A stretch of 41,757 nt of DNA. It comes from a virus. Each line of letters starts with the position of its first letter. The stretch's first letter is position 1. Below are positions 4,929-16,438 of the stretch, piece by piece. The translations under genes were made by a program, and so were the position numbers. The stretch spans positions 1 through 41,757 of the IMG/VR virus record IMGVR_UViG_3300029570_000020; one strand, given 5' to 3'. The notes beneath the pieces are model-generated. The model worked only from the letters and a program-made list of their open reading frames with translations, was not told where the DNA came from and made no database searches.

Positions 4929-6014
4929 ATGAAAAGAACAAATACAGCGAGATGGATTGAATCTGCCCAGCGTTGGCAGATAAACGTGCAGAAAGACGGC
5001 GTGCGCAAGACGTTTACCAGCGCCAAACCGGGCCGCACAGGCCAGAGGGAAGCTAACAAAAAAGCAGATGAATGGCTTGACATAGGCGTAAAGACGGAAC
5101 GCATTAAGGTTTCTGACGCATGGGAACAGTTGCTGCAGCAGAAAAAACTTGTGTCTGATGCAGAATACAAAAACATGGCATCGTTCGGCCGCTCCCATTT
5201 GCTGCCGGCCATCGGGATCAAGTCGATAAAAACCGTTACTGAACAGGATTTCCAAAAAATTATAGATTATGCGTTTCGCCATCCACAGGGGAACAGCAAA
5301 GATCCCTTATCCAAAAAGACGTTACAGAACTATGCCAGCTACTGCAAGCAGTTTGTGAATTTTTGCCGAAAATCAAAATGGACAACGCTTGAGCTTGAGG
5401 AGTTACAGATTCCGGCAGCGTCCAGAAAAAAAGGAAAGAACGTGCTGACAGTTGAAGCGCTGAACACGCTGTTAAAAGTAGATACGACCATCATGCGCGG
5501 AAAATCTGTGCATGATGAATACATAAATTATTATAGGTTCCAAGTGCTAACAGGCATGCGGCCCGGTGAAATGCGGGGGCTGCGATGGGAAGATGTTGAC
5601 GGGAATCTGTGCAGACTAAAGCAGGCTATCAATGCGCACGGTCAAATCACGCAGGGAAAAAACGAAAACGCATTGCGCACGGTAGTGCTATCCAGACGCG
5701 CAGTGGACGTGCTGGAAGCTCAGAAAGCAGTGACTGGAAAGCAGGCCTATATCTTTCCAATGGCATCCATGCACACCTATTACCACCGCTGGCAGCGCTA
5801 TCAGCGCTCTAATGACATGCCGGAGCTGAGTCTTTACGAACTGCGCCACACGTTTGTGAGTATTGCGAAGGAGCTGCCGACTGGCGAGTTAAAGCAGCTA
5901 GTCGGGCATAGCGAGGATATGGACACATACGGCACATACTCCCACTACATCGCTGGAGATGACGAACGGACAGCCAAAAACCTACAAGAAATCTTTGATA
6001 GATTGGTGGACTAA
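4929..6014 (+). CDS. int: Tyrosine recombinase / phage integrase
   Basis: 361 aa. Motifs TGMRPGEMRGLRWEDV, LYELRHTFVS and GHSEDMDTYGTYSHY (R..HxxR..Y catalytic pattern). Adjacent to attP. Confidence 0.9.
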   Translation: MKRTNTARWIESAQRWQINVQKDGVRKTFTSAKPGRTGQREANKKADEWLDIGVKTERIKVSDAWEQLLQQKKLVSDAEYKNMASFGRSHLLPAIGIKSIKTVTEQDFQKIIDYAFRHPQGNSKDPLSKKTLQNYASYCKQFVNFCRKSKWTTLELEELQIPAASRKKGKNVLTVEALNTLLKVDTTIMRGKSVHDEYINYYRFQVLTGMRPGEMRGLRWEDVDGNLCRLKQAINAHGQITQGKNENALRTVVLSRRAVDVLEAQKAVTGKQAYIFPMASMHTYYHRWQRYQRSNDMPELSLYELRHTFVSIAKELPTGELKQLVGHSEDMDTYGTYSHYIAGDDERTAKNLQEIFDRLVD

Positions 6015-6039
6015 AAAGTACACACTAAAAGTACACACT
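6014..6039 (+). promoter_or_regulatory. Arm-type repeats, left arm: AAAAGTACACACT x2 in tandem
   Basis: Perfect 13-bp tandem copies at 6014-6026 and 6027-6039. Confidence 0.55.
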
Positions 6040-6139
6040 TTTTTTCTTAAATGTATGAAATAATAGAAAAAGTATGTGATAAAGCAAAAAATATAGCAAT
6101 ATACCGCTATATTTTCAACCACTAAAAGCATTGTGTATA

Positions 6140-6163
6140 GTTCGAGTCCTGTCACCTCGACCA
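6140..6163 (+). other. attP core: 3' end of a tRNA gene (T-loop, 3' acceptor strand, CCA)
   Basis: GTTCGAGTCCTGTCACCTCGACCA reads as T-loop TTCGAGT, T-stem CCTGT, acceptor CACCTCG, discriminator A, CCA. The upstream sequence is AT-rich and not tRNA-like. Confidence 0.65.
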
Positions 6164-6167
6164 AAAC

Positions 6168-6208
6168 AAATGCCGTAGATTCGTTATAATCTACGGCATT
6201 TTCTTTTT
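6168..6208. terminator. Bidirectional rho-independent terminator
   Basis: 13-bp stem AAATGCCGTAGAT (6168-6180) pairs with ATCTACGGCATTT (6189-6201). T-rich on the plus side and A-rich upstream. Confidence 0.7.
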
Positions 6209-6210
6209 CA

Positions 6211-6232
6211 AGTACACGTTTTAGTACACACT
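6211..6232 (+). promoter_or_regulatory. Arm-type repeats, right arm: AGTACAC / AGTACACACT
   Basis: Same motif and orientation as the left arm, at 6211-6217 and 6223-6232. Confidence 0.5.
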
Positions 6233-6235
6233 CGC

Positions 6236-6373
6236 CTATTTTCTCTGCAAACTGTGTACCAAATCATTATACACATCAGGTCTCACTTCTTTCAGCGCAT
6301 CCATAAACTCATCCAGCACACGCCACACTCGCCCGGTATCGGCCTTTTTTACAATCTCCAAAAATTCACTCAT
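6236..6373 (-). CDS. Small protein (45 aa), paralogous to the C-terminus of the upstream gene product
   Basis: Manual read: MSEFLEIVKKADTGRVWRVLDEFMDALKEVRPDVYNDLVHSLQRK. It overlaps the stop of 6366..6719 by 8 nt. Confidence 0.5.
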   Translation of the reverse strand: MSEFLEIVKKADTGRVWRVLDEFMDALKEVRPDVYNDLVHSLQRK

Positions 6374-6719
6374 CCTGTAAACGCTCCAATTTCCGCATTA
6401 CGCCATTGTATACTTTAGGATTTGCCACATACAGGGCAGACATAAGCTCATCCAGTACGTTCAGCGCCGCTGTTGTGTCTACGTTTGACACAGCCCGTAA
6501 AAAGTCGCTGCTGCCAACAGCAGCCCTTGTAGACGGCTCTGCCGCTTCGTAGTAGCGCACAGGCTCTTGCAGTTCTGCTTTCTGCGGGGGATGGGATGCA
6601 TCTGCAAGCTGCTGATTTTTCACAACATACAATGCCGCCAAATTTTTAACTCTGGTCATGGTGAGTTCGCTGTTTTCGATTTCGGCTATAGCGCCGTCAA
6701 TCTCTCGCACGTCAACCAT
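6366..6719 (-). CDS. Hypothetical cargo protein (117 aa)
   Basis: ORF track. Normal composition. The C-terminal region SDFLRAVSNVDTTAALNVLDELMSALYVANPKVYNGVMRKL is repeated in the next gene. Confidence 0.55.
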   Translation of the reverse strand: MVDVREIDGAIAEIENSELTMTRVKNLAALYVVKNQQLADASHPPQKAELQEPVRYYEAAEPSTRAAVGSSDFLRAVSNVDTTAALNVLDELMSALYVANPKVYNGVMRKLERLQDE

Positions 6720-6736
6720 AGCCCTTACACCTCACT

Positions 6737-7132
6737 TTAACCGTTTCGCATCGTGTCAATGCAGCGCTGGATGACTTCCCTGTCTTTGCTGTCAGCCCCG
6801 CGCATAATATCTTCCATGCGGGAAATCAGTGAATCGCGCCCATCGTCCATGCTGTAGTGCCCGCGCACATAATGCGAACCGCGCCGCGCATAGCTGCTGC
6901 CGCGTCCATAATTGCCGCGCATGTTGGCGCTCCAATCACCATCGCGGCTGTAATCCTCATCGCGGCTGTAACCGTCATCTTCCAGCATGACAATTTTATC
7001 GATGTTTTTGATAGTGTCAGTCAGCTTGTGAACAGTTTCCAAGTCACCGGCAGACATTTCACCCTTCTTTCCGATTTCGTCCAGTTCTGCGCACAGCATG
7101 TCTTTCAAGTCATACAAAACTCTTTTACTCAT
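6737..7132 (-). CDS. Hypothetical cargo protein with a Tyr/Arg/Ser/Gly/Asp-rich low-complexity centre
   Basis: 131 aa. Centre: DDGYSRDEDYSRDGDWSANMRGNYGRGSSYARRGSHYVRGHYSMDDGRD, flanked by helical segments. Confidence 0.55.
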   Translation of the reverse strand: MSKRVLYDLKDMLCAELDEIGKKGEMSAGDLETVHKLTDTIKNIDKIVMLEDDGYSRDEDYSRDGDWSANMRGNYGRGSSYARRGSHYVRGHYSMDDGRDSLISRMEDIMRGADSKDREVIQRCIDTMRNG

Positions 7133-7144
7133 GGTTTACTCCTT

Positions 7145-7567
7145 TCAGCTCACTCTCTCGACCACAAAGTTTGCGTTCGCAAACAAAACGGTTTGTGTGC
7201 TTGTATTTTCGGCGGCAACGGTCAGGCAGCAGCCGCGCGGAACTTCAACAAAAGACGTCACATAGATATTAAAGAAGTTTTCTACTGCTGCCGGTGTCAC
7301 GGTTGCAGTCGCACTGTTCAGCGGTTCACCGTTGATGGCAAGCGCCGCCGTAATAGCTTCTACTGTGCCGCCTGTAGGGATAGCAACGTTTGCACCGAAG
7401 CCCACTTTGAAACGAGCTTTGCACTGGTTCGTAATGCCGCGCAGCGTAACAATACCGGCGCCCTCTCTGTGTACGACACAGCCCTTACCCGCTACTGCCG
7501 TTTCCGTCAGCGGCACGTTCTGGCCTGCTGCCACGCTCACAGTATTGGCGTTTGTAAATTCAGCCAT
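7145..7567 (-). CDS. Hypothetical cargo protein, beta-rich; possible TNF/C1q-like (BclA C-terminal-like) jellyroll
   Basis: 140 aa. Alternating beta-strand pattern. ...LAINGEPLNSATATV...VPRGCCLTVAAENTSTQTVLFANANFVVERVS resembles BclA-CTD-type sequences from memory. Confidence 0.35.
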   Translation of the reverse strand: MAEFTNANTVSVAAGQNVPLTETAVAGKGCVVHREGAGIVTLRGITNQCKARFKVGFGANVAIPTGGTVEAITAALAINGEPLNSATATVTPAAVENFFNIYVTSFVEVPRGCCLTVAAENTSTQTVLFANANFVVERVS

Positions 7568-7582
7568 AAAATCATTCCTTTC

Positions 7583-7617
7583 AAAAAAAGATAGTGGCGG
7601 GACGATTGCCCCGCCAC
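7583..7617 (-). terminator. Rho-independent terminator after 7681..8460
   Basis: On the minus strand, stem GTGGCGGG/CCCGCCAC (7594-7601 / 7610-7617) is followed by TATC and T7. Confidence 0.65.
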
Positions 7618-7680
7618 ATTTTGCACTATCGGCACGGGGCCGAACATGTCAGATGTTCCGACAAGTTGCCGTATTCATTT

Positions 7681-8460
7681 TTAGCATCCGCAGCCGTTGC
7701 AGGCTCCGCAATTCCCATACTGATACGGTGCGGGAACGGGGAAAGCAGGAACAGGGCGGGGGTTGTAGTAAGCGAGCTGCCCGCTCATATAGGCTTTCAG
7801 CGTTTCATTCTGCGCAGCCTGACTTGCGGCAAGCTGTGCGGCAAAAAGCTGCTGGTTCTGCTCGGCAATCTTGGCATCCTTCGCTTCAATGCGCTGTGCG
7901 GTCATCGCGTCAAGAATCGCTCTTGCGTTGGCATTCTGGTTGTCGATGATGTCTCGTGTGCCAGTGTTGATGCTCTGCCGGGTCTCACATGCCTGTGTCG
8001 CAAGATTGTAATTCACGCCCTGAATCGCCTCGCGGGTTTCGCAGCAGCAGTTGGCCTGCTGCATCTGCATGGCATTCAGCTGCTGCATAAATGCCGCCTG
8101 CTGGTTTGCGCGGCTGATTTCAGCTGACATAAAGCCGTTGCTCATGCCCTGCTGTACGCCGTTGATAAGCTGCGCCTGCTGATAAAAGCCATCGCACAAG
8201 CCATTGTTCACGTTGTCAATTTTGCGCTCAATGTTGGCGAAATCAGAGGTCAGCACATAGCCGTCAACCACCCCAGCGCCGTTGCCAGCATTGTTGCCCC
8301 AGCCGTTACCATTGCCCCAGCCGCCAGCAAAAATGAACAGAAACAGCACAATCAGCCACAGAGCGCCGTTATCGCCCCAGCCGAAGCCGCCACCATTAGA
8401 ATTGGCGTTTGCGGGCTGAACCGGCATAGTCATTACAGTTCCATCCGAAGAAAGACTCAT
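7681..8460 (-). CDS. Membrane-anchored Gly/Asn/Trp-rich, Gln-rich, Cys-cluster protein (unknown function)
   Basis: ATG 8460 with AAGGAG SD. Features: GGGFGWGDNGALWLIVLFLFIFAGGWGNGNGWG (TM flanked by Gly-rich runs), NCCCETREAI, ACETRQSI, and the C-terminus GNCGACNGCGC. Confidence 0.6.
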   Translation of the reverse strand: MSLSSDGTVMTMPVQPANANSNGGGFGWGDNGALWLIVLFLFIFAGGWGNGNGWGNNAGNGAGVVDGYVLTSDFANIERKIDNVNNGLCDGFYQQAQLINGVQQGMSNGFMSAEISRANQQAAFMQQLNAMQMQQANCCCETREAIQGVNYNLATQACETRQSINTGTRDIIDNQNANARAILDAMTAQRIEAKDAKIAEQNQQLFAAQLAASQAAQNETLKAYMSGQLAYYNPRPVPAFPVPAPYQYGNCGACNGCGC

Positions 8461-8485
8461 AATTGTTCTCCTTAAAAAAATATTA

Positions 8486-8508
8486 TACAAATCTGCGCAG
8501 ATTTTGTA
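8486..8508. promoter_or_regulatory. Near-perfect 22-23-bp palindrome between divergent genes (candidate operator)
   Basis: TACAAATCTGC|GCAGATTTTGTA. The perfect 16-bp core AAATCTGCGCAGATTT lies at 8489-8504. Confidence 0.45.
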
Positions 8509-8513
8509 TTTTG

Positions 8514-8522
8514 TGGTATAAT
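8514..8522 (+). promoter_or_regulatory. Extended -10 promoter element (TGgTATAAT) for the HNH gene
   Basis: Read directly. AAGGGAG SD and ATG 8561 lie downstream. Confidence 0.45.
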
Positions 8523-8560
8523 AGAAACAGAATAATCCACCACGTAAGGGAGTACAGTTT

Positions 8561-9163
8561 ATGGAAAAATGGTTACCTGTTCCGAATTACGAAGGCTTAT
8601 ATGAAGTAAGCAATTTAGGAAAAATAAAGAGCATAAATTACAATCATACGAAAGTAGAAAAACTTCTTTCCGAAAAGAGCCATAAAAGCGGTTATAAAAC
8701 CGTTGTCCTATGTAAAAACGGAGAAAAGAAAAACAAATCCATTCACATTCTTGTCGCGAGCGCATTTATACCAAACCCGCAGAAGAAGTGTCAAGTAAAT
8801 CATATTGATGGGAATAAATCAAACAACTGCGTTGAAAATTTAGAATGGGTTACTGCGTCAGAAAACATTCGACATAGTTTTGTTTCTCTTGGTAAAAAGT
8901 CTCCAAATAAGGGAAGATTTGGGGAAAGTCACTATGCGTCTGTTCAAATATTCCAGTATTCACTTGATGGAAAATTTGTCCGTGCTTGGGCTTGTATTTC
9001 CGATGCTGCGAGGAAACTCAGTTGCAATCCATCACAAATATTGAACAACGCAAAAGGGAGAACGAAAACGTGTCACGGATTTATGTGGCGTTACGAAAAA
9101 GCCGAAAGAATAGATAATTCTCCAGTGCTAAACAGGAAAACCCACAAGAAAAAAGGATTATAA
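8561..9163 (+). CDS. Free-standing HNH homing endonuclease (NUMOD4 + HNH + C-terminal DNA-binding module)
   Basis: MEKWLPVPNYEGLYEVSNLGKIKS (NUMOD4-like), VNHIDGNKSNNCVENLEWVT (HNH), ISDAARKLSCNPSQILNNAKGRTKTCHGFMWRY. AT-rich and on the opposite strand to its neighbours. Confidence 0.85.
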   Translation: MEKWLPVPNYEGLYEVSNLGKIKSINYNHTKVEKLLSEKSHKSGYKTVVLCKNGEKKNKSIHILVASAFIPNPQKKCQVNHIDGNKSNNCVENLEWVTASENIRHSFVSLGKKSPNKGRFGESHYASVQIFQYSLDGKFVRAWACISDAARKLSCNPSQILNNAKGRTKTCHGFMWRYEKAERIDNSPVLNRKTHKKKGL

Positions 9164-9373
9164 CAGCCCCTGAAACTGCTGCGCCATTGTCTGCAACTGG
9201 TTAAGCTGCTGCTGGCTCATCTTCCCGGACTGCAGTAGTTTCTGCACCTCTTGTTTCGGGTCGCCCTGAAAATTCTGCCGAAACTGCTGAAACTGCTGCA
9301 TCATTTGCTGGAATTGTCCCATCGCGCCCGGCATTTTGCCGCCGCCAAGAGCGTTAAACAGAGGGTTGCTCAT
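9158..9373 (-). CDS. Gln-rich small protein (71 aa)
   Basis: ORF track: GQFQQMMQQFQQFRQNFQGDPKQEVQKLLQSGKMSQQQLNQLQTMAQQFQGLL. Confidence 0.5.
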   Translation of the reverse strand: MSNPLFNALGGGKMPGAMGQFQQMMQQFQQFRQNFQGDPKQEVQKLLQSGKMSQQQLNQLQTMAQQFQGLL

Positions 9374-9824
9374 TGTCTGCCTCCTTTTTCTTGCGCGTCA
9401 AAGGTTTATCCGCCGCCAGCGCGTCAAAGCGGGCTGTCAACGCGTTGAACTCTTGCCGTGTGACATATTCCTCTTTAGGTTTTTGCGTTGTCTGTGCGGG
9501 CTGTTTCTGGCTTGCCGTGCGTTCCGAGTAGTCAAAAACGCGCAATGGCTGCGGCATACCGCTGGCGTCGGTGGACTTAATGTAAAATGTACTGTTTTCG
9601 CTGTCCATCAGCAGTACGCTGTTCCCTGCCGCCACCATATACGCTTTGGCTCCTTCTTCACCCTGCACCCAGATAATAGGCGAGCTTTGCTGTGCCGGTT
9701 GCTGCTGCGGATATGCCGCTTGCCGGAGCTGTGTAAGCTGATCGGGCATGGCCGAAGGCATCTGCTGCCCCATTGGATAATAGTTCGGCATATAGCTGGG
9801 CTGATACGGTACGCCAAACGCCAT
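9354..9824 (-). CDS. Gln/Pro/Tyr-rich N-terminus plus small beta-domain protein (unknown function)
   Basis: ATG 9824; the track starts at TTG 9830. PYQPSYMPNYYPMGQQMP...IIWVQGEEGAKAYMVAAGNSVLLMDSENSTFYIKSTDASGMPQPLRVFDY. Confidence 0.55.
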   Translation of the reverse strand: MAFGVPYQPSYMPNYYPMGQQMPSAMPDQLTQLRQAAYPQQQPAQQSSPIIWVQGEEGAKAYMVAAGNSVLLMDSENSTFYIKSTDASGMPQPLRVFDYSERTASQKQPAQTTQKPKEEYVTRQEFNALTARFDALAADKPLTRKKKEADNEQPSV

Positions 9825-9830
9825 AGTCAA

Positions 9831-10208
9831 TCATCCTTTCTGCCAGTAGTACAGCGGCACTTCATCGCCGCTGTCCCATGTATCCAGCCAATCGCCATTT
9901 TGCACGCACACAACATGCGTAGCCATTGCCAAAATATACGTGCCGTCCGAGTGGTCTTTTGCAAACTGCGCCACTGTGTAACAATCCGGGCAGCTGTTTG
10001 GCAACGTGTAGCGCTTCCACCCACATCGCCGCAGATAACTGCCCCAGACATAGTTTGCAGACGGCATATCATGAAGTTCAAATCCTGCCAACACAAGCGC
10101 CGCATATACAGTCGCCCACTCTTGATGCGTTGCGGCTGCAATGGCTCTGACTGTACAATCTCCAACGCGCTTTTGTTCCGGGTTTAGGTTGATTTGCTTG
10201 TATGCCAT
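9831..10208 (-). CDS. Putative papain-fold cysteine peptidase-like protein
   Basis: ATG 10208 with AAGGAG SD (125 aa). Candidate triad: GDCTVRAIA (Cys), ATHVVCV (His), DTWDS (Asp). Confidence 0.35.
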   Translation of the reverse strand: MAYKQINLNPEQKRVGDCTVRAIAAATHQEWATVYAALVLAGFELHDMPSANYVWGSYLRRCGWKRYTLPNSCPDCYTVAQFAKDHSDGTYILAMATHVVCVQNGDWLDTWDSGDEVPLYYWQKG

Positions 10209-10235
10209 CCGAACCGCTCCTTTTATATAAATTGT

Positions 10236-10290
10236 ACACAAAAAGACGGCACACTGTGGGCCACCGAAGTGCCAACATTGTGCCGTCTTT
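10236..10290 (-). terminator. Long stem-loop with a U-run (second of two tandem terminators)
   Basis: 12-bp stem 10242-10253 / 10279-10290. On the minus strand it is followed by TTTTTGTGT. Confidence 0.5.
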
Positions 10291-10295
10291 GGGAC

Positions 10296-10333
10296 AAAAT
10301 AAAAAAGGCGCGGCCACAAAAGCAGCCGCGCCC
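10296..10333 (-). terminator. Strong rho-independent terminator ending the late operon
   Basis: GC stem GGCGCGGC/GCCGCGCC (10307-10314 / 10325-10332), followed on the minus strand by TTTTTTATTTT. Confidence 0.75.
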
Positions 10334-10339
10334 TTTAAA

Positions 10340-10504
10340 TCAGCCTATTTTGTTTTTGATGCTGTGTACGCGCCGTTTTACCGTGCGCTCGCTACAATTC
10401 AGTTCTGCCGCAATATCAGCATTGCGCCAGCCGCGCCGCCGAAGCTGCAAAACATCCGTTTCTTCATCGGTCAGCAAACCGCCGACAAAATCAAACTTTG
10501 GCAT
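10340..10504 (-). CDS. Small LuxR / sigma-70 region-4-type HTH protein (54 aa)
   Basis: Manual read: MPKFDFVGGLLTDEETDVLQLRRRGWRNADIAAELNCSERTVKRRVHSIKNKIG. Below the track cutoff. Confidence 0.5.
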   Translation of the reverse strand: MPKFDFVGGLLTDEETDVLQLRRRGWRNADIAAELNCSERTVKRRVHSIKNKIG

Positions 10505-10506
10505 GA

Positions 10507-10701
10507 TTACTCATCCTTCTTGTTCTTGCTTTCGGTCTGTGTTCCAAAATAAAAGGCTACGACCATTGTAACAATGGTCATCACTGTGTCCGGCTGCAGG
10601 CCGCCCCGCAGTGCCATTACGGCAAAAACAGCAACGACAACCAGCGTCACAATGGTTTTTACCTTAATAAGCGCTGCCAGATTTTTCAAAAAATCGCCCA
10701 T
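10507..10701 (-). CDS. Holin (two TM segments, charged C-terminus)
   Basis: 64 aa. IVTLVVVAVFAVMAL and VMTIVTMVVAFYFG, then TQTESKNKKDE. It neighbours the lysin gene. Confidence 0.65.
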   Translation of the reverse strand: MGDFLKNLAALIKVKTIVTLVVVAVFAVMALRGGLQPDTVMTIVTMVVAFYFGTQTESKNKKDE

Positions 10702-10717
10702 AGATATGCACCCTCTT

Positions 10718-11071
10718 TCAGCCGATCAGATGCTTCTGCAAATCTTTCTTTGCTTTCTGCATCTGGTCAATGTTGTTTCCATCCAGATTGTGGTCAAGCA
10801 GGGCAAGCAGCGCCTGCATGGTCACGCGCTGCCCCTCGTCCATGCGGTCAAGCCGCTGTTTGTCGTTTCTCAAGAATCCCTCCATGGCGTTCACCCGCTC
10901 TTCAAGCTGTGTAATGCGTTTGTCCTGGTCGGCTTTCGGCTTTTTTATGGCAGTGATGACTTTGCTGATGGCAACGCCACCGGCATACAGTCCGGCAGCA
11001 GCGCCCGCCGCGTAAATCAAAAACGCCCAAGCCTCCGCAAGTGTAAACGAAAATACATGCTGCATCGGCAT
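10718..11071 (-). CDS. Membrane-anchored coiled-coil protein in the lysis cassette
   Basis: ATG 11071 overlaps the lysin stop (TGATG). N-terminal TM AWAFLIYAAGAAAGLYAGGVAI, then a heptad-like helical region. Confidence 0.4.
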   Translation of the reverse strand: MPMQHVFSFTLAEAWAFLIYAAGAAAGLYAGGVAISKVITAIKKPKADQDKRITQLEERVNAMEGFLRNDKQRLDRMDEGQRVTMQALLALLDHNLDGNNIDQMQKAKKDLQKHLIG

Positions 11072-11742
11072 CACACCTCCGCCCATTCAGATTTATACAG
11101 CCCGGCATCGGTCAGGCCGCGGCTCTGGCACACGGCAAAGACGGCGTCTGCATCGCCCTGCGAGACCGGCCCTACCGTGATGACCTGCAGCTTGCCGGTG
11201 CCGTTCCGGGCCGTCTGAGCGCCGCTGGCGGCCTGCTCGGGCAGCTGTACAGCGTGCTCGCCGGGGCGGTATGTAAACACCTGCCCGCTCGCCGTGGTAA
11301 AATCGCTGTCCATCCACACAAGCGGGTTGGTGCGCTTGCCGTTCAGAATCACTTCAAAGTGCAAATGCGCGCCAAACACATTCCCGGTCACGCCGCTGAA
11401 GCCGATGAGCTCGCCCTCCTTCACCTGCTGGCCGTACTTGACGCAATAGCCGCTCAGGTGCCCGTACCGCGTCTGCAGCACACCGCCCTTGTAGGGCGCG
11501 TGCCTGATGCGCACCATGTCGCCATAGCTCTGCATACCCGTCCGGGTGTGGCCGTCCCAGTCCTGCACCTGATCCACGGTGCCGTCCTCGGCAGCGTATA
11601 CCGGCTGCGTGCTGGTATTGCCGATCTGGGTGCGCAGGTCGATGGCCTGATGCAAGCTGCCATCGTTGTAGTACCACCCCTGCGTGATGATGTGCTGGGC
11701 CAGAGGCCAGCGCAGCAGTACCTCACCGTTTGAAAGTCTCAT
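11071..11742 (-). CDS. M23 (LytM-type) peptidase, probable endolysin, with a possible SPOR-like C-terminal domain
   Basis: HQAIDL (HxxxD) and GAHLHFEV (HxH) motifs. The C-terminus KLQVITVGPVSQGDADAVFAVCQSRGL resembles the SPOR pattern. Confidence 0.75.
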   Translation of the reverse strand: MRLSNGEVLLRWPLAQHIITQGWYYNDGSLHQAIDLRTQIGNTSTQPVYAAEDGTVDQVQDWDGHTRTGMQSYGDMVRIRHAPYKGGVLQTRYGHLSGYCVKYGQQVKEGELIGFSGVTGNVFGAHLHFEVILNGKRTNPLVWMDSDFTTASGQVFTYRPGEHAVQLPEQAASGAQTARNGTGKLQVITVGPVSQGDADAVFAVCQSRGLTDAGLYKSEWAEV

Positions 11743-11873
11743 TGTATCACCTCATCATTGTCCATCACAAGCGCTTCATACTCATCCAGCAGATCCCGCG
11801 CGGCCGGTATGGCCTCGCGGTAGTCCCACAGCACAAGCATCACCCGCGCCAGCAGATCGGCCTCCTCGCTCAT
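11739..11873 (-). CDS. Hypothetical small acidic protein (44 aa)
   Basis: Internal Met of track ORF 11739..12089. ATGA overlap with the upstream stop. MSEEADLLARVMLVLWDYREAIPAARDLLDEYEALVMDNDEVIQ. Confidence 0.4.
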   Translation of the reverse strand: MSEEADLLARVMLVLWDYREAIPAARDLLDEYEALVMDNDEVIQ

Positions 11874-12301
11874 TCTTCCACCGGCGGCGTGGGCCACTGC
11901 ACCGCGTAGGGGAAGCCCGCCTGCTCGGGCACATCCCGCAGGGCCTGCCGGTAGGCCTTCCAGTCGGCCTTCACCGTCTTGGCATCGCCCAGCACAGTCC
12001 AGTCCGTGGCGGCGATCAGCTTGTCCCGCTCTGCACGCACAGCAGCTGCAGCGGCATCGTAGTCGTGCTGCCTGACCAGCGCGGCCCACGCATCCGGGTT
12101 GGTGCTGATGCCGCCGGCGGGCAGCGCTGTGACCATCTCATAGGTCGTATACTGCCAGCCGTGCCGGGGCGTGTCCATAGCGGACACAGCGTCGTGGGTG
12201 ACTTCCTGCTCATCCTCATAGAGCCGGATGAGCGTTGCTCCACCGGGCAGCGGCTCACACTCAAAGCGATCGCGCCGCTCTGCGCACTCAGTTTTTACCA
12301 T
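11870..12301 (-). CDS. Tail-fibre assembly chaperone-like protein
   Basis: The C-terminus RDKLIAATDWTVLGDAKTVKADWKAYRQALRDVPEQAGFPYAVQWPTPP fits the phage tail assembly chaperone pattern. It lies directly downstream of the fibre genes. Confidence 0.5.
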   Translation of the reverse strand: MVKTECAERRDRFECEPLPGGATLIRLYEDEQEVTHDAVSAMDTPRHGWQYTTYEMVTALPAGGISTNPDAWAALVRQHDYDAAAAAVRAERDKLIAATDWTVLGDAKTVKADWKAYRQALRDVPEQAGFPYAVQWPTPPVEE

Positions 12302-12365
12302 GTGTAATCACTCTCCTTATATTTTTGTATCTTGTCAATATCGGTCAGTTTTGTGGGGCCCCCGC

Positions 12366-13937
12366 TTAGCCGGGGATAGAAAGGTCCGCCGAACGGTCCC
12401 ACCAGATCCACGAAGCGTCGCCGGGGAGGGCGAGGCTGAATGCACCCGCGATGTCACCGCCCCTGGAGAGCGCACCGCGCAGAGCGACACGGGTGCCACT
12501 CTTGTTGATGTAGAAATAGTCGGCCAGATGGGTTCCGCTGCTGCCGCCGACTTCCTTTGTGATCTGCAGCCACGGGAACCGCTCATCCGCCTGGAGGTTC
12601 TTTGCCCAGCCCTCGTTAGGCAGCGTGAGGGAATCCAGCTTCGTGTAGTTCTCAACGCTCGACCAGTTGTAGTTGGTGTCGTTGCAGATGTAGGGCACGC
12701 CGTCAACGATTTTCCAGTCGCACTCAAAGCGCCACTGGTTGCCATAGAGCGGGTTCTCGCAGCCGTAGAACACAAAGCTGTGCTTGCCGTCCGTGTTGCT
12801 CACAGGGCTGCCGCAGGTGGAGATCACGCTGTTGGCCGTGCCGGCGGACTGCATGATGCGCCAGATTTTGTGGTCGGTGGTCGTGGTGACCGCATCACCG
12901 TCAAAACTGACCTTGACATTGGCGCTGTCGCCGTCAATAGCCTCTACAGCGGTGACGATGCGGCGCTTGGCAATGCTCTCATCCTCGCTGCCGGTGCCGA
13001 TGGAGATGACATTGCCGACCTCCAGCACGCCCTTGGCGACCGTGACGGCACTCTCTCCGGTGCGTGCTCCGGTGATGGCGATGTCGGTTGCGTACAGCGA
13101 CACGCAGCCGTTAATTTTGCTCTGAAAATTCCGCGTGCCATACACAACAGTCATCAAGTAGGCCAGTACCTCAAAGTCAGCGCTTGTGCCGATGCTGTAA
13201 GTCTCGCCCCAAAGCCGTGCCGCAGCCAAAAACTGCGAGATCGTCTTGTTGCCGGTGGAGACAACGCCCGCAATGCTGTGCAGCTTGCCGTCCGCACCGA
13301 TGCTGCCGGGGAAGGCGGGCAGGTAGCACTTCTGCTTGAGGGAGCCGTCCGCGTTCTGAAACTTCTTCGGTGCGCGGAATCCCGGCATCGGCACCGCCGA
13401 CACGTGCGGATTTACATCAAGCATGCCGGAGACATAGAACAGCGGCACCTCAACCAGCACCTCACCGTTCGTGCCATCCTCAATGTAGCCGGGCTGGCCC
13501 TTGTAGGCGTTGACCGTGACCGTGCCGTCCGCGTTCAGCGTGCAGCAGCAGCGCCGCATACCCGCCCAAGGATAGACGCCGTCAAAGTCGTTTTGTCCTG
13601 CGCTGGTATCGGTGCCGGGGGTAAACACAAACTCCGCAGCTGCCCCCGTCCGCGTGCCCGCGCTGGTACTGCCGGAGAAGTCTACACCGTAGAATGTAGC
13701 ACCAACAGCCGAAGCCGCAGCCTTGGCAGATGCCGCCGCAGCATTCGCGCTCTGGTCTGCCTGCGTAGCACTGGTCTGGGCGGCGTTCTTGGCCGCGTTC
13801 GCCTCGGCCAGATTCGTGCCGGCGTTCGCCAGCAGCGTGCCGAACTCATCGCGCGTGCCGGTGTAGCCGTGCGCCTTGGCGTCAGCGTAGGCGGTCACAG
13901 CGCCCAGATCGGTGGTAAAAACAGAACTATCAGCCAT
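12366..13937 (-). CDS. Tail fibre / receptor-binding protein
   Basis: ATG 13937 overlaps the upstream stop, with a GGAGG SD. N-terminal Ala-rich coiled coil and a large C-terminal globular part. Confidence 0.55.
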   Translation of the reverse strand: MADSSVFTTDLGAVTAYADAKAHGYTGTRDEFGTLLANAGTNLAEANAAKNAAQTSATQADQSANAAAASAKAAASAVGATFYGVDFSGSTSAGTRTGAAAEFVFTPGTDTSAGQNDFDGVYPWAGMRRCCCTLNADGTVTVNAYKGQPGYIEDGTNGEVLVEVPLFYVSGMLDVNPHVSAVPMPGFRAPKKFQNADGSLKQKCYLPAFPGSIGADGKLHSIAGVVSTGNKTISQFLAAARLWGETYSIGTSADFEVLAYLMTVVYGTRNFQSKINGCVSLYATDIAITGARTGESAVTVAKGVLEVGNVISIGTGSEDESIAKRRIVTAVEAIDGDSANVKVSFDGDAVTTTTDHKIWRIMQSAGTANSVISTCGSPVSNTDGKHSFVFYGCENPLYGNQWRFECDWKIVDGVPYICNDTNYNWSSVENYTKLDSLTLPNEGWAKNLQADERFPWLQITKEVGGSSGTHLADYFYINKSGTRVALRGALSRGGDIAGAFSLALPGDASWIWWDRSADLSIPG

Positions 13938-14946
13938 GAATCTGTACCTCCAAATTCGTGTCATTGACAATAGCAAAATCAATCTTATCTTTCAGATTGG
14001 TCGTGCGCGTGTACATCAGATGCCCCGTGTCCGGGTCAACGCCCATCTGCATGTAGCCGTTGCTCAGCGCAGCCTGCCGCGCCAGCTCCACGCTTGCATC
14101 AACTTGCTGCTGCTTTTCGGTCACATCCGCTTGGCGCTCCTTGACATCGGCCTGGATCGTCTCCATCTGTGCCAGCTTGTCCGCCACGCCCGCCTCATTG
14201 ACCTTGGTTGCCGCATCGCCCGCAGTCTTAGCCGCAGCAGCCGCAGCATCCGCCGACTTTTTAGCTGCCTCCGCGCTGTCGGCCGCGGCAGTGGCAGAAT
14301 CGGCAGCCTCCTTGGCCTCGCTCTCTGCGTTGTCCTGTGCAGTCAGTGCATCCCTTGCCGCAAGCCGCGCACCATCGCTGGCCGCCTCTGCCGCTTCTTT
14401 GGCAGCAAGCGCGGTCCCTGCATACGGCCCGGCCTTGGCAGCATCTGCCGCCGCATTTTCCGCCGCCTGCTGTGCCTTTTCAGCATTTTCTTGAGCCTTA
14501 TTTGCGTTAGCTTTGGCTTCTGACGCATTTTGAGCAGCTGCCTCCGCGTTTGATTTAGCTTGCATAGTTGCTTCAAGCACCTGCGCCGCCAGCTCGGGCG
14601 TCGGCTCTGCATCCGCGCCGCCGTATACGCCCGCTTGCTCAAGAATAAGATACTCCACGTTACAACTCGCCCGCTGCACGCTGGAGGCCAGCCCGGCCAG
14701 CACAAGCACGCCATCCTTAGCCTCCTTCGTTACCTCGGGCGGCACATCCATGGCATCCCCATCCAGCAGGGCCACGCGCAGCGGCTCTTCCCGCCCGGGG
14801 ATGTGCCATGTTGCAGTGAGATTTAGACCATCCCACCCGGCCCCGCGCTCAATCTTGATACTCTCCGTGCCAAAGCTGGAATTAGTCCCTAGCACCAACT
14901 TTCGCGGAATTGGGGTGTAGTTATCCAGCCTTAAAGTATGTACCAT
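13930..14946 (-). CDS. Tail fibre protein with a long Ala-rich coiled coil
   Basis: 338 aa. The centre AEAAAQNASEAKANANKAQENAEKAQQAAENAAADAAKA... is typical of fibre shafts. Confidence 0.55.
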   Translation of the reverse strand: MVHTLRLDNYTPIPRKLVLGTNSSFGTESIKIERGAGWDGLNLTATWHIPGREEPLRVALLDGDAMDVPPEVTKEAKDGVLVLAGLASSVQRASCNVEYLILEQAGVYGGADAEPTPELAAQVLEATMQAKSNAEAAAQNASEAKANANKAQENAEKAQQAAENAAADAAKAGPYAGTALAAKEAAEAASDGARLAARDALTAQDNAESEAKEAADSATAAADSAEAAKKSADAAAAAAKTAGDAATKVNEAGVADKLAQMETIQADVKERQADVTEKQQQVDASVELARQAALSNGYMQMGVDPDTGHLMYTRTTNLKDKIDFAIVNDTNLEVQIHG

Positions 14947-15049
14947 GCTCTACCTCCTTAGGCGTTGATTATGATCGGCTCCCTCATGGTTTCATTTCTC
15001 ATGCTGATTTCATGAATAATAGTTTCGGACATTATTTCACGCTCCTTTC

Positions 15050-16438
15050 TTAGTAGATCATATACACCTTAAACAAGACATTGGATATAAAAGCGCCAGC
15101 TTTTCCATAAGACTGTGCGCCGACAGTCAACATGCCGGTATCAGGATTGTAAGAAACATAGTCAGCGCAGGCTCCGCTTCCGGAAGTAGCAACATCGGTG
15201 CTGTTCCCGCTCCAAGCATAAGGGACGGTATAAAAATTACTGCGGCTCAGCTTGTCATAAATGCTCCCATAGTGTGACTTCACATCATATGTGAAGTTTG
15301 TGAAAGCGGCGGTTTGCTGGCCCAGATAAACAGTTTTGTAGCTGCGTTTTGCAGTTACACTCCCGCTGCCGTTGTGATACCCAATAGGGATTTCGTAAGA
15401 ATCGCCCGGGTAGATAGCTTCGCTTACTGCGCCCCTGTTCGGCATTTTTCCTTCTTTGATGGTTTTACCGCCTGCGTAGAACTTATTCCCTGCCAGCACA
15501 TTGTCCTCTGTGGCGGTGGCCTGTGCCAGCTTCGCATTGGATAATCCACCGCCGCCGTTAAAATCCAGCCGCGTGCCATCGTATACAAACGTGATCCACC
15601 GCCCGGCAACAACGCTGTCCCCGTCCGCCGCGTCCGCCCCGCAATACGCAGGCACGGCCACGCCGTTGACTGTCCACGTGTCGCCCGCACTCCACGCGGC
15701 GGGGACTTTAAACCGCCCCACCGCGCCGGTGCCCTTCAGTGCGTAGACTTTGCCGGACTTCGTACAGCTGTACAGCTGCACCGCCGCATCAAGGCCCAGG
15801 CCCGCCGGGTCATACTCGCCCTTGGTCATCACGGCAGTGCCCGCGTGCAGTTTGGAAAGCTCGGTCTTTACCTTTTCCAGCAATGTGGAAAACTGCGCCT
15901 GCATGGTGGTAGTATCAACGCTAACCCAATCCGTAACAAGCCCACACACATCGGGGTCAAGCCGTTCGTCCGTGATGCTGTCCGCAGAAATGCTGCTTAC
16001 CGCTGCTGCGACGCCAATACGCGCAAGAGAAATTTGCCGTTTCAAAGTGTTGTTTGTAAGTTCCGGGGCGGTAGGTGCATTATTTGGCGTACCTTTTAGC
16101 ACTTCAATGCGCGGCTTTGACGCATAATCCACCGTATCCCAGCTAACAACAACCCTGTCAATACGTGGCAGGATGGCATCTGCCAACGGGATTGTCAGCC
16201 GCAACTCGCTTCCAGTCTGTTCTTTTGTATCATTCCAAAAAACTGTGCCGTCCGCTTTGTCGTTCGCCAGCCAACCCACGCCATCTGAAACGCTTACCGT
16301 CATATCGCCGTTTGCGGTAACACTTAAATTGTCATCCGCGCCAAACACGCCGCTGGAACGACCATGCAGCCATTTCATCACATTTTCGGCTCCGATATAT
16401 TCATCCACGTTATTCGGAAAATTTTTGATTTCTGCCAC
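15050..16438 (-). CDS. Tail-tip / receptor-binding structural protein
   Basis: 462 aa, positioned between the baseplate-like proteins and the fibres. Confidence 0.5.
   Translation of the reverse strand: MAEIKNFPNNVDEYIGAENVMKWLHGRSSGVFGADDNLSVTANGDMTVSVSDGVGWLANDKADGTVFWNDTKEQTGSELRLTIPLADAILPRIDRVVVSWDTVDYASKPRIEVLKGTPNNAPTAPELTNNTLKRQISLARIGVAAAVSSISADSITDERLDPDVCGLVTDWVSVDTTTMQAQFSTLLEKVKTELSKLHAGTAVMTKGEYDPAGLGLDAAVQLYSCTKSGKVYALKGTGAVGRFKVPAAWSAGDTWTVNGVAVPAYCGADAADGDSVVAGRWITFVYDGTRLDFNGGGGLSNAKLAQATATEDNVLAGNKFYAGGKTIKEGKMPNRGAVSEAIYPGDSYEIPIGYHNGSGSVTAKRSYKTVYLGQQTAAFTNFTYDVKSHYGSIYDKLSRSNFYTVPYAWSGNSTDVATSGSGACADYVSYNPDTGMLTVGAQSYGKAGAFISNVLFKVYMIY

Follow-up and report, generated by a model that had tools for sequence, protein, structure and literature searches.

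The stretch of DNA considered here (hereafter the window) is the complete 41,757-nucleotide virus record IMGVR_UViG_3300029570_000020 from IMG/VR. Between positions 10208 and 6236 of the window, eight open reading frames (ORFs), labeled g1 to g8, run on the minus strand, as listed in a preliminary description of this DNA. I propose that these genes represent a copy of an accessory cassette, portable and transcribed separately, which is carried by phages of gut Clostridia and related Bacillota and builds a membrane-anchored complex in infected cells. Taken as a whole, I judge this explanation to have a little less than an even chance of being correct, and most of the weight I place on it rests on its organisational part.

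Conservation and distribution of the cassette

The cassette has a recurrent layout on one strand, consisting of a small transmembrane (TM) protein, a helix-turn-helix (HTH) gene labeled g0, a terminator joined to an extended -10 promoter-like element, then g1 (optional), g2, g3, g4, g5, g6 and, again optionally, g7/g8. The same gene order, on one strand, is found in Dulem viruses 33, 35 and 39, in Butyrivibrio phage Ceridwen, and in unannotated human faecal phage contigs. A one-genome-per-species scan identified it in 80 loci, mainly from Oscillospiraceae, Lachnospiraceae and Acutalibacteraceae, with some from Bacilli and from metagenome-assembled genomes (MAGs) of Anaeroplasmatales. The cassette is present in ∼170 loci of Oscillospiraceae, Lachnospiraceae and other Bacillota phages, and Mollicutes MAG contigs are found among the carriers besides Anaeroplasmatales. 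Counts of colinearity, gene presence and junctions were made on a set of 88 diverse loci; the families are found together and in the same order across this set, which bears out the co-occurrence in Clostridia genomes and prophages that the preliminary description had suggested as a check. The genes g2 (present in 71 of the 88), g4 and g5 form the core, while g1, g3 and g6 (the latter in 62) tend to co-occur, and g7/g8 represent a variable tail.

For each of the g4 and g5 families, public metagenomes contain more than 7000 clusters at 90% identity (more than 7900 in the case of g4), nearly all from gut samples, and the g1 family has 1262 clusters at 50% identity. None of the g4 and g5 clusters has a functional name; their named sources include Gemmiger formicilis, Faecalibacterium sp., Eubacterium sp. 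and Caudoviricetes MAGs. Every member of the cassette is labeled "hypothetical" in public annotation, and the PHROG matches, obtained for six of the eight proteins, are all to families of unknown function. Sequence searches with g1–g8 against Pfam, NCBIfam, PADLOC and the PDB gave nothing significant (no match to the PADLOC models at E ≤ 0.1), nor did the family profiles of g1, g2 and g6. In these searches there is accordingly no resemblance to known virion, lysis or defence families, as had been stated from the sequence alone. Hidden Markov models (HMMs) of the cassette proteins identified no paralogues elsewhere in the window. No obvious N-terminal signal peptide was seen, by eye, in g1–g3 and g5–g8, and a role of these soluble products at the surface of vegetative cells would therefore need lysis or holin-dependent release.

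The cultured carriers are Butyrivibrio phage Ceridwen, Vescimonas fastidiosa MM35, Lachnospiraceae bacterium JLR.KK009 and Lachnospira intestinalis CLA-AA-H89B. Gemmiger, Subdoligranulum, Lachnospira and Butyrivibrio are among the carrier genera, none of which is known to sporulate.

Eleven relatives, picked by their holin gene, appeared cassette-free; at least one of these (locus L182, IMGVR_UViG_3300045988_140759) has an insert of ∼7.5 kb before g0, where the fetched locus stops. There, positions 8575–15902 encode a Q-rich protein of 288 amino acids (aa) and a giant ORF of 2132 aa, which separate the HTH gene from the small TM gene. Such an insert, present in some close relatives, moves the HTH gene ∼7.5 kb downstream.

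A conserved terminator and promoter-like junction

Two tandem terminators are located between g0 and g1, on the minus strand. Terminator 1 (10297–10336) possesses a 15-bp GC-rich stem (10336–10303) followed by UUUUUUAUUUU, with a folding energy of −26.9 kcal/mol (z −7.1), and terminator 2 (10237–10290) possesses a long interrupted stem (10290–10242) followed by UUUUUG (−28.8 kcal/mol, z −4.6), where the z-scores express the folding energy against that of shuffled sequences. A promoter-like element is found at 10217–10240 of the same strand, in which TGTGTACAAT (10240–10231) is fused to the T-run and followed by AAGGAG (10222–10217), with the g1 ATG at 10208. Folding, the ORFs and integrated relatives (see below) together confirm the arrangement reported in the preliminary description, namely two tandem terminators, eight minus-strand genes, a bidirectional terminator and the phage attachment site attP.

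The string TGTGTACAAT is the window's variant of a junction that is conserved in at least 25 divergent loci, in the order GC-rich hairpin, T-run, TRTG-C-GAAAAT, ∼6 nucleotides (nt), CATA and GGAGG. The sequence of the hairpin differs between lineages, while the string following the T-run stays constant. A strict version of this pattern has 37 matches on both strands of the 88 diverse loci, ∼25 of which are exactly at the cassette start. More generally, the 350 nt preceding the first cassette gene contain a terminator-like hairpin in 28 of 66 loci, compared to 12.9% of random windows, and in the large phages that have no g0, a terminator and TGaTATAAT still precede g2.

I read the TRTG-C-GAAAAT string as a putative extended -10 promoter, with transcription starting at CATA and a very short leader. 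TRTG is the "-16" motif of Gram-positive promoters, and the -35 position falls within the terminator. I also considered a promoter for a sporulation sigma factor, and rejected it, since the gap of only 5 nt between GAAAAT and CATA suits a -10 element and a start site, and not a -35/-10 pair. Judging from this conserved junction, the cassette would be a transcription unit of its own wherever it is located. At the sequence level, the window copy is bounded as morons (autonomous accessory transcription units of phages) are, with two upstream terminators, a putative promoter represented by the -10-like element, and a bidirectional terminator downstream. The earlier label of terminator-insulated cargo, beside attP, is therefore supported at the level of organization.

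The gene g0 (10340–10504, minus strand), upstream of the terminators, encodes a 54-aa HTH protein of the GerE/LuxR type, similar to region 4 of sigma-70. It scores 39.5 bits against the Pfam family GerE (PF00196, cutoff 23.5), and is above the cutoffs of Sigma70_r4_2 and Sigma70_r4 too. In ∼45 of 70 divergent loci, g0 adjoins the cassette just upstream of g1 or g2, irrespective of the genome position: it precedes g1 in the Oscillospiraceae-type arrangement, lies between g1 and g2 in the head-operon type, and precedes g2 when g1 is absent. This linkage, which the preliminary description had overlooked, makes g0 a candidate regulator of the cassette.

Directly upstream of g0, a gene at 10507–10701 (minus strand) encodes a 64-aa membrane protein with two hydrophobic segments, which belongs to phrog_13256, of unknown function. 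A TM protein in this slot is a conserved feature, as the ORF immediately preceding the HTH gene contains a strong TM segment in 29 of 40 loci, compared to 13.7% of background ORFs. The next gene (10718–11086, minus strand) is labeled "holin" in PHROG (phrog_1296, E = 1.4e-6; Pfam DUF7365, 28.6 bits), and its 122-aa product has an N-terminal TM segment followed by a coiled coil. In head-operon copies a homologue is found between g1 and the HTH gene (L088 6753–7058, L086 1351–1776). Two further families were observed near the junction in other loci. A small single-TM family, with a C-terminal motif like YQWSQFDTIVVDS..GGNANY.GNDGDINN, recurs directly upstream of the HTH gene (L120, L122, L124, L125, L127, L128, L132, L137, L143, L157, L160), and a conserved ORF of ∼40–50 aa (e.g., MTYFERLIAANIPEDEAEAL..., MYERLLACGFTEQMAMDIL...), absent from the window, is found between the promoter-like motif and g1 (L091, L092, L098, L105, L111, L128, L137). 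No Rfam family was found in positions 5900–10700 of the window.

Genome positions and independence from the phage backbone

The cassette occupies at least three genome positions. In the first, it comes after the lysis genes and is convergent with the integrase gene, and thus forms the terminal block beside a tRNA once the phage is integrated. Examples are the window, Dulem virus 33, the isolate Vescimonas fastidiosa MM35 and many prophages of Oscillospiraceae, and such prophage-end copies abut a tRNA or tmRNA gene. In the second, it is found within the head operon, with a Phage_min_cap2 gene on one side, and the scaffold and major capsid genes on the other (Dulem virus 35, MT835739, and Lachnospiraceae prophages including that in the complete chromosome of JLR.KK009); Dulem virus 35 has an ordinary, separate lysis cassette beside its integrase. 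In the third, it follows tail proteins and fibres, in phages on 73–151-kb contigs that encode DNA polymerase III alpha, NrdD/NrdG, dUTPase and peptide deformylase, and that look like virulent phages. Ceridwen, with cassette proteins under the accessions QHJ73766–73771, possesses no integrase, and has been observed in the lytic cycle only (PMC7372960). In all cases, the cassette has the orientation of the late genes. The preliminary description had assigned the cluster to the classical position for lysogenic conversion; this is correct in that it forms the last prophage block beside a tRNA or tmRNA, but it is just one of the positions used.

Sequence comparisons illustrate that the cassette and the phage backbone are decoupled. 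Between the window and Dulem virus 33, g3 is 72% and g5 62% identical, while the lysis, tail-tip and fibre genes and the integrase have no BLAST match. The g5 of the JLR.KK009 prophage (L122) is 60% identical to that of the window, with no BLAST match for the major capsid protein; conversely, the capsid protein of Dulem virus 35 is 55% identical to that of the window, and its g5 only 35%. The cassette moves as a block from one genome position to another, and among phages whose capsid genes have no detectable relationship. Both temperate and virulent-looking phages carry it. The presence in both lifestyles, the late-gene orientation, the high conservation and the decoupling from the capsid argue against a spore-coat or purely lysogenic-conversion role, and less strongly against a role in capsid decoration; they fit a mobile accessory module acting in the infected cell.

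Features of the cassette proteins

The core gene g5 (7145–7567, minus strand; phrog_20016, E = 2e-57) encodes a 140-aa protein, predicted to be a stand-alone TNF/C1q-like jellyroll. An AlphaFold2 (AF2) model based on 76 homologues (pLDDT 96, pTM 0.86) is all-beta, with a ten-strand jellyroll spanning residues 2–138. A Foldseek search against the PDB with this model matched 9h38, 7r1m, 9h3d, 8d02, 1wck and TNF-family ligands, with TM-scores of 0.7–0.78 and E-values of ∼1e-6, at 9–15% sequence identity. The best structural matches are the C-terminal domain (CTD) of F-BclA, ExsFA/BxpB and the BclA CTD, followed by EDA, 4-1BBL and phage fibre knobs, and the same fold is found in BFVD for many stand-alone phage proteins of 130–142 aa. 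The model therefore places g5 in the BclA-CTD/ExsF/TNF-like jellyroll fold. The resemblance to BclA-CTD and C1q noted in the preliminary description is thus retained for the predicted fold, but not for membership in the sequence families: besides a spurious hit to MoCoBD_1, g5 has no Pfam match at E ≤ 0.1 (including BclA_C, PF18573, and C1q, PF00386), no NCBIfam match, and no PDB sequence match below E = 1. The exosporium leader TIGR03720 was not matched by any cassette protein, and g5 lacks the layout of BclA proper, which consists of the exosporium leader and a collagen-like GXX stalk, as the jellyroll fills nearly the whole protein. It includes a conserved GCC, corresponding to the CC pair noted earlier. 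HMM comparison revealed no similarity between g5 and the tail-fibre genes of the window, and the idea of a receptor mimic or masking protein therefore gains no support. That g5 could be a decoration protein was also considered, and is weakened by the fact that its identity does not follow that of the capsid.

The second core gene g4 (7681–8460, minus strand; phrog_16490, E = 2e-48) encodes a protein of 259 aa from an ATG preceded by an AAGGAG ribosome-binding site, with the ORF extending to a TTG at 8490. In the family alignment, an acidic N-terminal tail leads into one TM helix embedded in G/N/W-rich sequence. A helical domain with Cys residues follows (motifs GLCDGFY and NCCCETR), then a coiled coil, the conserved motif P-[IV]-P-A-[YF] and, at the C-terminus, GCGC. 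The window protein contains nine Cys residues, including the CCC and the C-terminal CGACNGCGC. On these features, g4 is the putative membrane anchor of the cassette. The YjcZ-like label it had been given was not upheld, as there is no match to YjcZ in Pfam or NCBIfam at E ≤ 0.1. It shares with the i-spanin Rz an N-terminal TM segment, long helices, a coiled coil, conserved Cys residues and a Pro-rich segment; however, it is longer, has the CCC and GCGC motifs and shows no sequence similarity to Rz. A spanin function was rejected, as the lipoprotein partner is absent and the hosts are not known to possess an outer membrane.

The third core gene g2 (9354–9830, minus strand; phrog_21718, E = 3e-35) encodes a 158-aa protein with a Q/P/Y-rich N-terminal region (residues 1–50 are 60% Q, P, Y and M), a small beta-rich domain and a C-terminal helix (YVTRxEF...), and its profile found nothing in the PDB or Pfam. 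The helical protein g3 (71 aa, 9158–9373, minus strand; phrog_22984, E = 1.5e-23), which co-occurs with g1 and g6, is 28% Gln; its N-terminus MSNPLFNALGGG is conserved, as is an LGGG, and a [FYM]xG.[ND]P turn is found at its center.

The first gene, g1 (9831–10208, minus strand; phrog_3754, E = 1e-28), encodes a 125-aa protein that includes Asp17-Cys18, His98 and Asp109. These four residues are invariant or at least 90% conserved in five close and 63 distant homologues, so that the Cys/His/Asp pattern previously noted in the single sequence holds as an invariant Asp-Cys...His...Asp across the homologues. The order of Cys, His and polar residue is that of papain-like and NlpC-P60-like hydrolases, and g1 is a putative papain-like cysteine hydrolase on this basis, with no match to peptidase profiles in Pfam, NCBIfam or the PDB profiles. 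The name "putative peptidase", attached to g1 homologues in Bacillus phages, is an annotators' label only. Homologues of g1 are also found alone, outside any cassette, in Tsamsa-like phages of Bacillus, in Geobacillus phage GBK2 (L176) and in Lak megaphages, and g1 is thus an optional add-on. In the Tsamsa-like phages (L175, Bacillus phage Izhevsk, 9583–9978), it is located in the early region, beside a Ser/Thr kinase gene and an Ocr-like anti-restriction gene.

The 131-aa protein g6 (6737–7132, minus strand; phrog_28802, E = 5e-9) has helical N- and C-terminal parts around a center rich in R, G, Y, S and D, which make up 77% of residues 52–98, and this center is probably disordered. Its profile has no match in Pfam or the PDB. 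In the variable tail, g7 (6366–6719, minus strand) encodes a helical protein of 117 aa, and g8 (6236–6373, minus strand) a 45-aa paralogue of its C-terminal part, with BLAST cross-matches between the two. The paralogy reported for this pair was confirmed, with the g7 HMM matching g8 at E = 9e-12. Residue counts likewise agree with the compositions given earlier (Q-rich g3, Q/P/Y-rich g2, Cys and CCC in g4, CC in g5, Y/R/S/G/D-rich g6).

Insertions within the cassette

An additional ORF, which had been overlooked, is found between g3 and g4, antisense to the cassette (8561–9163, plus strand; phrog_59). It encodes a free-standing HNH homing endonuclease with NUMOD4, HNH_3 and NUMOD1 domains, with Pfam scores of 49.6 and 41.8 bits for NUMOD4/HNH_3. 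It is present in ∼7 of 84 close relatives, and an HNH gene occupies the same g3/g4 junction in L001, L102, L111 and L137. The insertion replaced the short g3–g4 spacer and the last codons of g3, and the GC content drops to 0.436 in positions 8001–9000, around this ORF. Both the domains and the presence/absence polymorphism at a fixed site are those of a homing endonuclease. In its domains, low GC, polymorphism and recurrent insertion site, it is similar to the I-HmuI-like NUMOD4/HNH_3 free-standing endonucleases, with nothing unusual. It is a passenger inside the cassette, and has no part in its function. At the edge of the insertion, a TATAAT hexamer (8482–8487, minus strand), 21 nt upstream of the g4 ATG, could restart transcription of g4–g8.

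Other insertions were observed. In the JLR.KK009 prophage (CP143549, L122 8825–9940), a gene for a C-5 cytosine DNA methylase is located between g4 and g5, indicating that the cassette tolerates foreign cargo. In a large cassette-bearing phage (L172 16877–20423), nrdD is apparently split by a NUMOD4 endonuclease gene.

The window genome and its attachment site

The window corresponds to the unintegrated genome, of ∼41.8 kb, of a siphovirus-like temperate phage. The genes for the terminase, portal, minor head, major head and major tail proteins, as well as the tape measure, Dit, tail and fibre genes, are all on its minus strand. The tyrosine integrase gene (4929–6014, plus strand) is convergent with the cassette, and its homologues adjoin the cassette in many loci. 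The attP core, GTTCGAGTCCTGTCACCTCGACCA (6140–6163, plus strand), is identical to the 3′ end of tRNA-Pro(UGG), and no complete tRNA gene is present in the window. The integrated form is represented by nine near-identical IMG/VR relatives, in which the core is part of a complete tRNA-Pro(UGG) fused to the same terminator and cluster, while some other near-identical IMG/VR relatives have the same phage-form junction as the window. The bacterial attachment site attB is tRNA-Pro(UGG). Four direct AGTACACRY repeats (starting at 6017, 6030, 6211 and 6223, and spanning 6017–6231, plus strand) flank the core. These are the only matches to this motif in the window, where 0.55 would be expected by chance, and they are likely arm-type sites for the integrase.

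A bidirectional intrinsic terminator (6168–6201, both strands) lies between the cassette and the attP core. Its hairpin is perfect over 14 bp, is flanked by a T-run at either end, and is predicted to fold on each strand (z −5.9 and −8.0). In lysogens, it separates the cassette from tRNA-Pro; in more distant prophages, the cluster ends 80–300 nt short of a tRNA or tmRNA gene that is encoded on the other strand.

The endolysin gene (11071–11742, minus strand) encodes an M23 peptidase. This gene is mosaic, as relatives possess a 421-aa version (L182 6751–8016), in which an additional domain separates the conserved N- and C-terminal parts, and the window endolysin falls into two pieces in tblastn searches against many loci. 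Two DNA methyltransferase genes, at 32021–32905 and 36019–37374 (minus strand; phrog_56 and phrog_116), are present in the early region.

Proposed function and alternatives

In the mechanism proposed here, g0 would be made from the preceding late/lysis transcript, the terminator would halt read-through, and transcription of the cassette would start at a promoter of its own that needs no -35 element, with g0 possibly tuning it. The g4 protein would then enter the cytoplasmic membrane, with its short acidic N-terminal tail outside and its Cys-rich helical domain inside. A TNF-like trimer of g5 would dock on g4 at the conserved, Pro-rich motif near its C-terminal end. The analogy here is with ExsF, the trimer of which binds Pro-rich leader peptides in clefts at the subunit interfaces (PMC12357932). 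The g2, g3, g6 and g7 proteins would join as soluble partners, which g1, where present, may process or modify. The resulting membrane-anchored complex would act in the infected cell, and perhaps in the lysogen too. The most plausible role is the conditioning of the membrane around lysis, or blocking the entry of rival phages; the complex might also prepare cargo for release at lysis.

Several observations weigh against this proposal. The motif read as a promoter could have another role, as the site to which g0 or another sigma factor binds. The AF2 model of g4, from 52 homologues, had a pLDDT of 44, with only the TM helix and three long helices visible, and was discarded. The orientation of g4 in the membrane, with the N-terminus outside and the remainder inside the cell, is weakly hinted at by the charges flanking the TM helix (0.47 K+R before it and 1.32 after, per 30 residues). 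The docking of g5 on g4 is suggested by analogy, and g4 has no match to TIGR03720. Systems for defence or superinfection exclusion usually consist of one protein or include enzymes, neither of which holds for the cassette. Finally, the late-gene orientation, the frequent location after fibres or among head genes, and the fact that TNF-like knobs are common in fibres make a role in the virion possible.

Such a virion role, in which g5 would be a trimeric TNF-like knob or decoration protein, and the other products an anchor, chaperones or ejected membrane-active proteins, all made late, is unlikely in my view, though it deserves to be taken seriously. It would agree with the invariable location on the late-gene strand, with the insertion between minor capsid and scaffold genes in Lachnospiraceae phages and directly after tail proteins in the large phages, with the presence in a phage seen in the lytic cycle only, and with the fold of g5, which also matches the phi812 central spike, the cyanophage A-1(L) fibre and Klebsiella phage fibres. 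However, the cassette has its own candidate regulator, terminator and putative promoter even within the head operon, its position varies, and g5 stays 53–60% identical between phages with capsid genes that are not detectably related. In addition, g5 has no shaft or attachment domain, unrelated cargo (the C5 methylase and HNH genes) is tolerated inside the cassette, and accessory genes, such as the anti-CRISPR loci of Mu-like phages, are known to collect in the gap between minor capsid and scaffold genes. I find it more doubtful still that the products accumulate late in the cytoplasm, are released by the adjacent holin or by lysis, and then serve outside the cell as an adhesin, matrix or bacteriocin-like factor. 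In most loci, the cargo is preceded by a TM or holin-like gene and a sigma-region-4-like HTH gene, even far from the lysis genes of the phage itself, the soluble products appear to have no signal peptides, and TNF/C1q-like domains are typical binding heads. This arrangement is reminiscent of UviA/UviB/Bcn of the Clostridium perfringens plasmid pIP404 and TcdR/TcdE of C. difficile, where a small sigma-related regulator and a holin-like protein are found beside a signal-less cargo, a likeness that I take to be one of architecture only. But g0, at 54–100 aa, is only a region-4-like HTH protein and falls short of a full sigma factor, the cargo differs in not being a toxin, and the parallel with UviA/UviB involves no sequence homology. 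Furthermore, g4 would remain anchored in the membrane, Pfam and NCBIfam searches identified no toxin, enzyme or carbohydrate-binding domain, and the large phages possess neither g0 nor the adjacent TM gene.

The likeness of g5 to exosporium proteins suggests two further explanations. Like ExsFA/BxpB and the BclA CTD, g5 is a stand-alone jellyroll of ∼140 aa, and it has no collagen stalk, as in ExsF; ExsF trimers bind Pro-rich leaders, and a conserved Pro-rich motif is present in g4. It differs from them in its low sequence identity, the absence of a family profile match, the absence of an exosporium leader in its partners, and the phage setting, and its trimerization and peptide binding are putative. 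The cassette could be a viral counterpart of exosporium-type assemblies, a previously unrecognised, self-assembling membrane-anchored structure that phages make in vegetative gut Clostridia, switched on by the portable unit of regulator, terminator and promoter, with an ExsF-like trimer docked on a Pro-rich anchor and Cys- and Gln-rich partners possibly cross-linked or processed by g1. In this reading, which I regard as improbable, the conserved junction, a hairpin fused to a -35-less promoter beside an HTH protein consisting only of region 4, would in addition represent a new timing device in phages. Distinctly improbable is the explanation offered in the preliminary description, that these genes are lysogenic-conversion cargo, forming a cross-linked spore-coat, exosporium or surface assembly for the lysogen. 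It draws on the fold of g5, closest to the exosporium BclA CTD and ExsFA/BxpB, on a linked regulator in the GerE family, on products rich in Cys, Gln and Tyr, on the absence of signal peptides, which is shared by coat proteins, and on a unit with a promoter-like element and terminators of its own at the prophage end, beside attR. Yet the cassette is carried by the integrase-less Ceridwen and by large phages with their own replication genes, and lies within head operons in other lineages. The GerE Pfam family spans LuxR-type HTH domains generally, and no cassette protein belongs by sequence to BclA_C, C1q, the exosporium leader, YjcZ or any coat family. The carriers also weigh against a link to spore coats, as they include the genera listed above as not known to sporulate, along with Anaeroplasmatales and Mollicutes contigs. 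An equally poor prospect is a new system of anti-phage defence or superinfection exclusion, with g4 as the effector and the TNF-like g5 as the sensor. The location at prophage ends and accessory hot spots, alongside methylases and HNH genes, would suit such a system, as would the membrane protein and a putative promoter that could fire in lysogens. On the other hand, there is no PADLOC match and no nuclease, NTPase, TIR, Sir2 or similar domain, the cassette is also present in virulent-looking phages, and its proteins are well conserved rather than fast-evolving, as illustrated by g3 and g5 of the window and Dulem virus 33.

Relation to morons and significance

In kind, the element described here is a moron-like accessory cassette. 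Morons and lysogenic-conversion genes, such as bor and lom of phage lambda, or the toxin genes between lysin and attR in Streptococcus and Staphylococcus prophages, are likewise autonomous, terminator-bounded units with their own promoter, inserted between modules, and in the lineage of the window the cassette is similarly found between the lysis genes and attR. It differs from these in having 7–10 genes instead of one or two, in its linked HTH regulator, in being found in head operons and virulent-looking phages as well, and in having no recognisable host-benefit function or obvious signal peptide. What is unusual is its size, the linked regulator and terminator-promoter junction, its abundance, and the lack of any recognisable enzyme or structural family besides one TNF-like fold. 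No description of this cassette was found in the literature searched.

Defining the cassette as a unit makes it testable, as cultured carriers exist, and corrects a tempting annotation as spore-coat or lysogenic-conversion genes. Thousands of phages that infect gut Clostridia share the cassette, which is bound neither to spores nor to lysogeny. An abundant block of 7–10 genes, found across unrelated backbones with its own junction, must matter to the phages of the dominant Clostridia of the human gut, namely Gemmiger, Faecalibacterium relatives and Lachnospiraceae.

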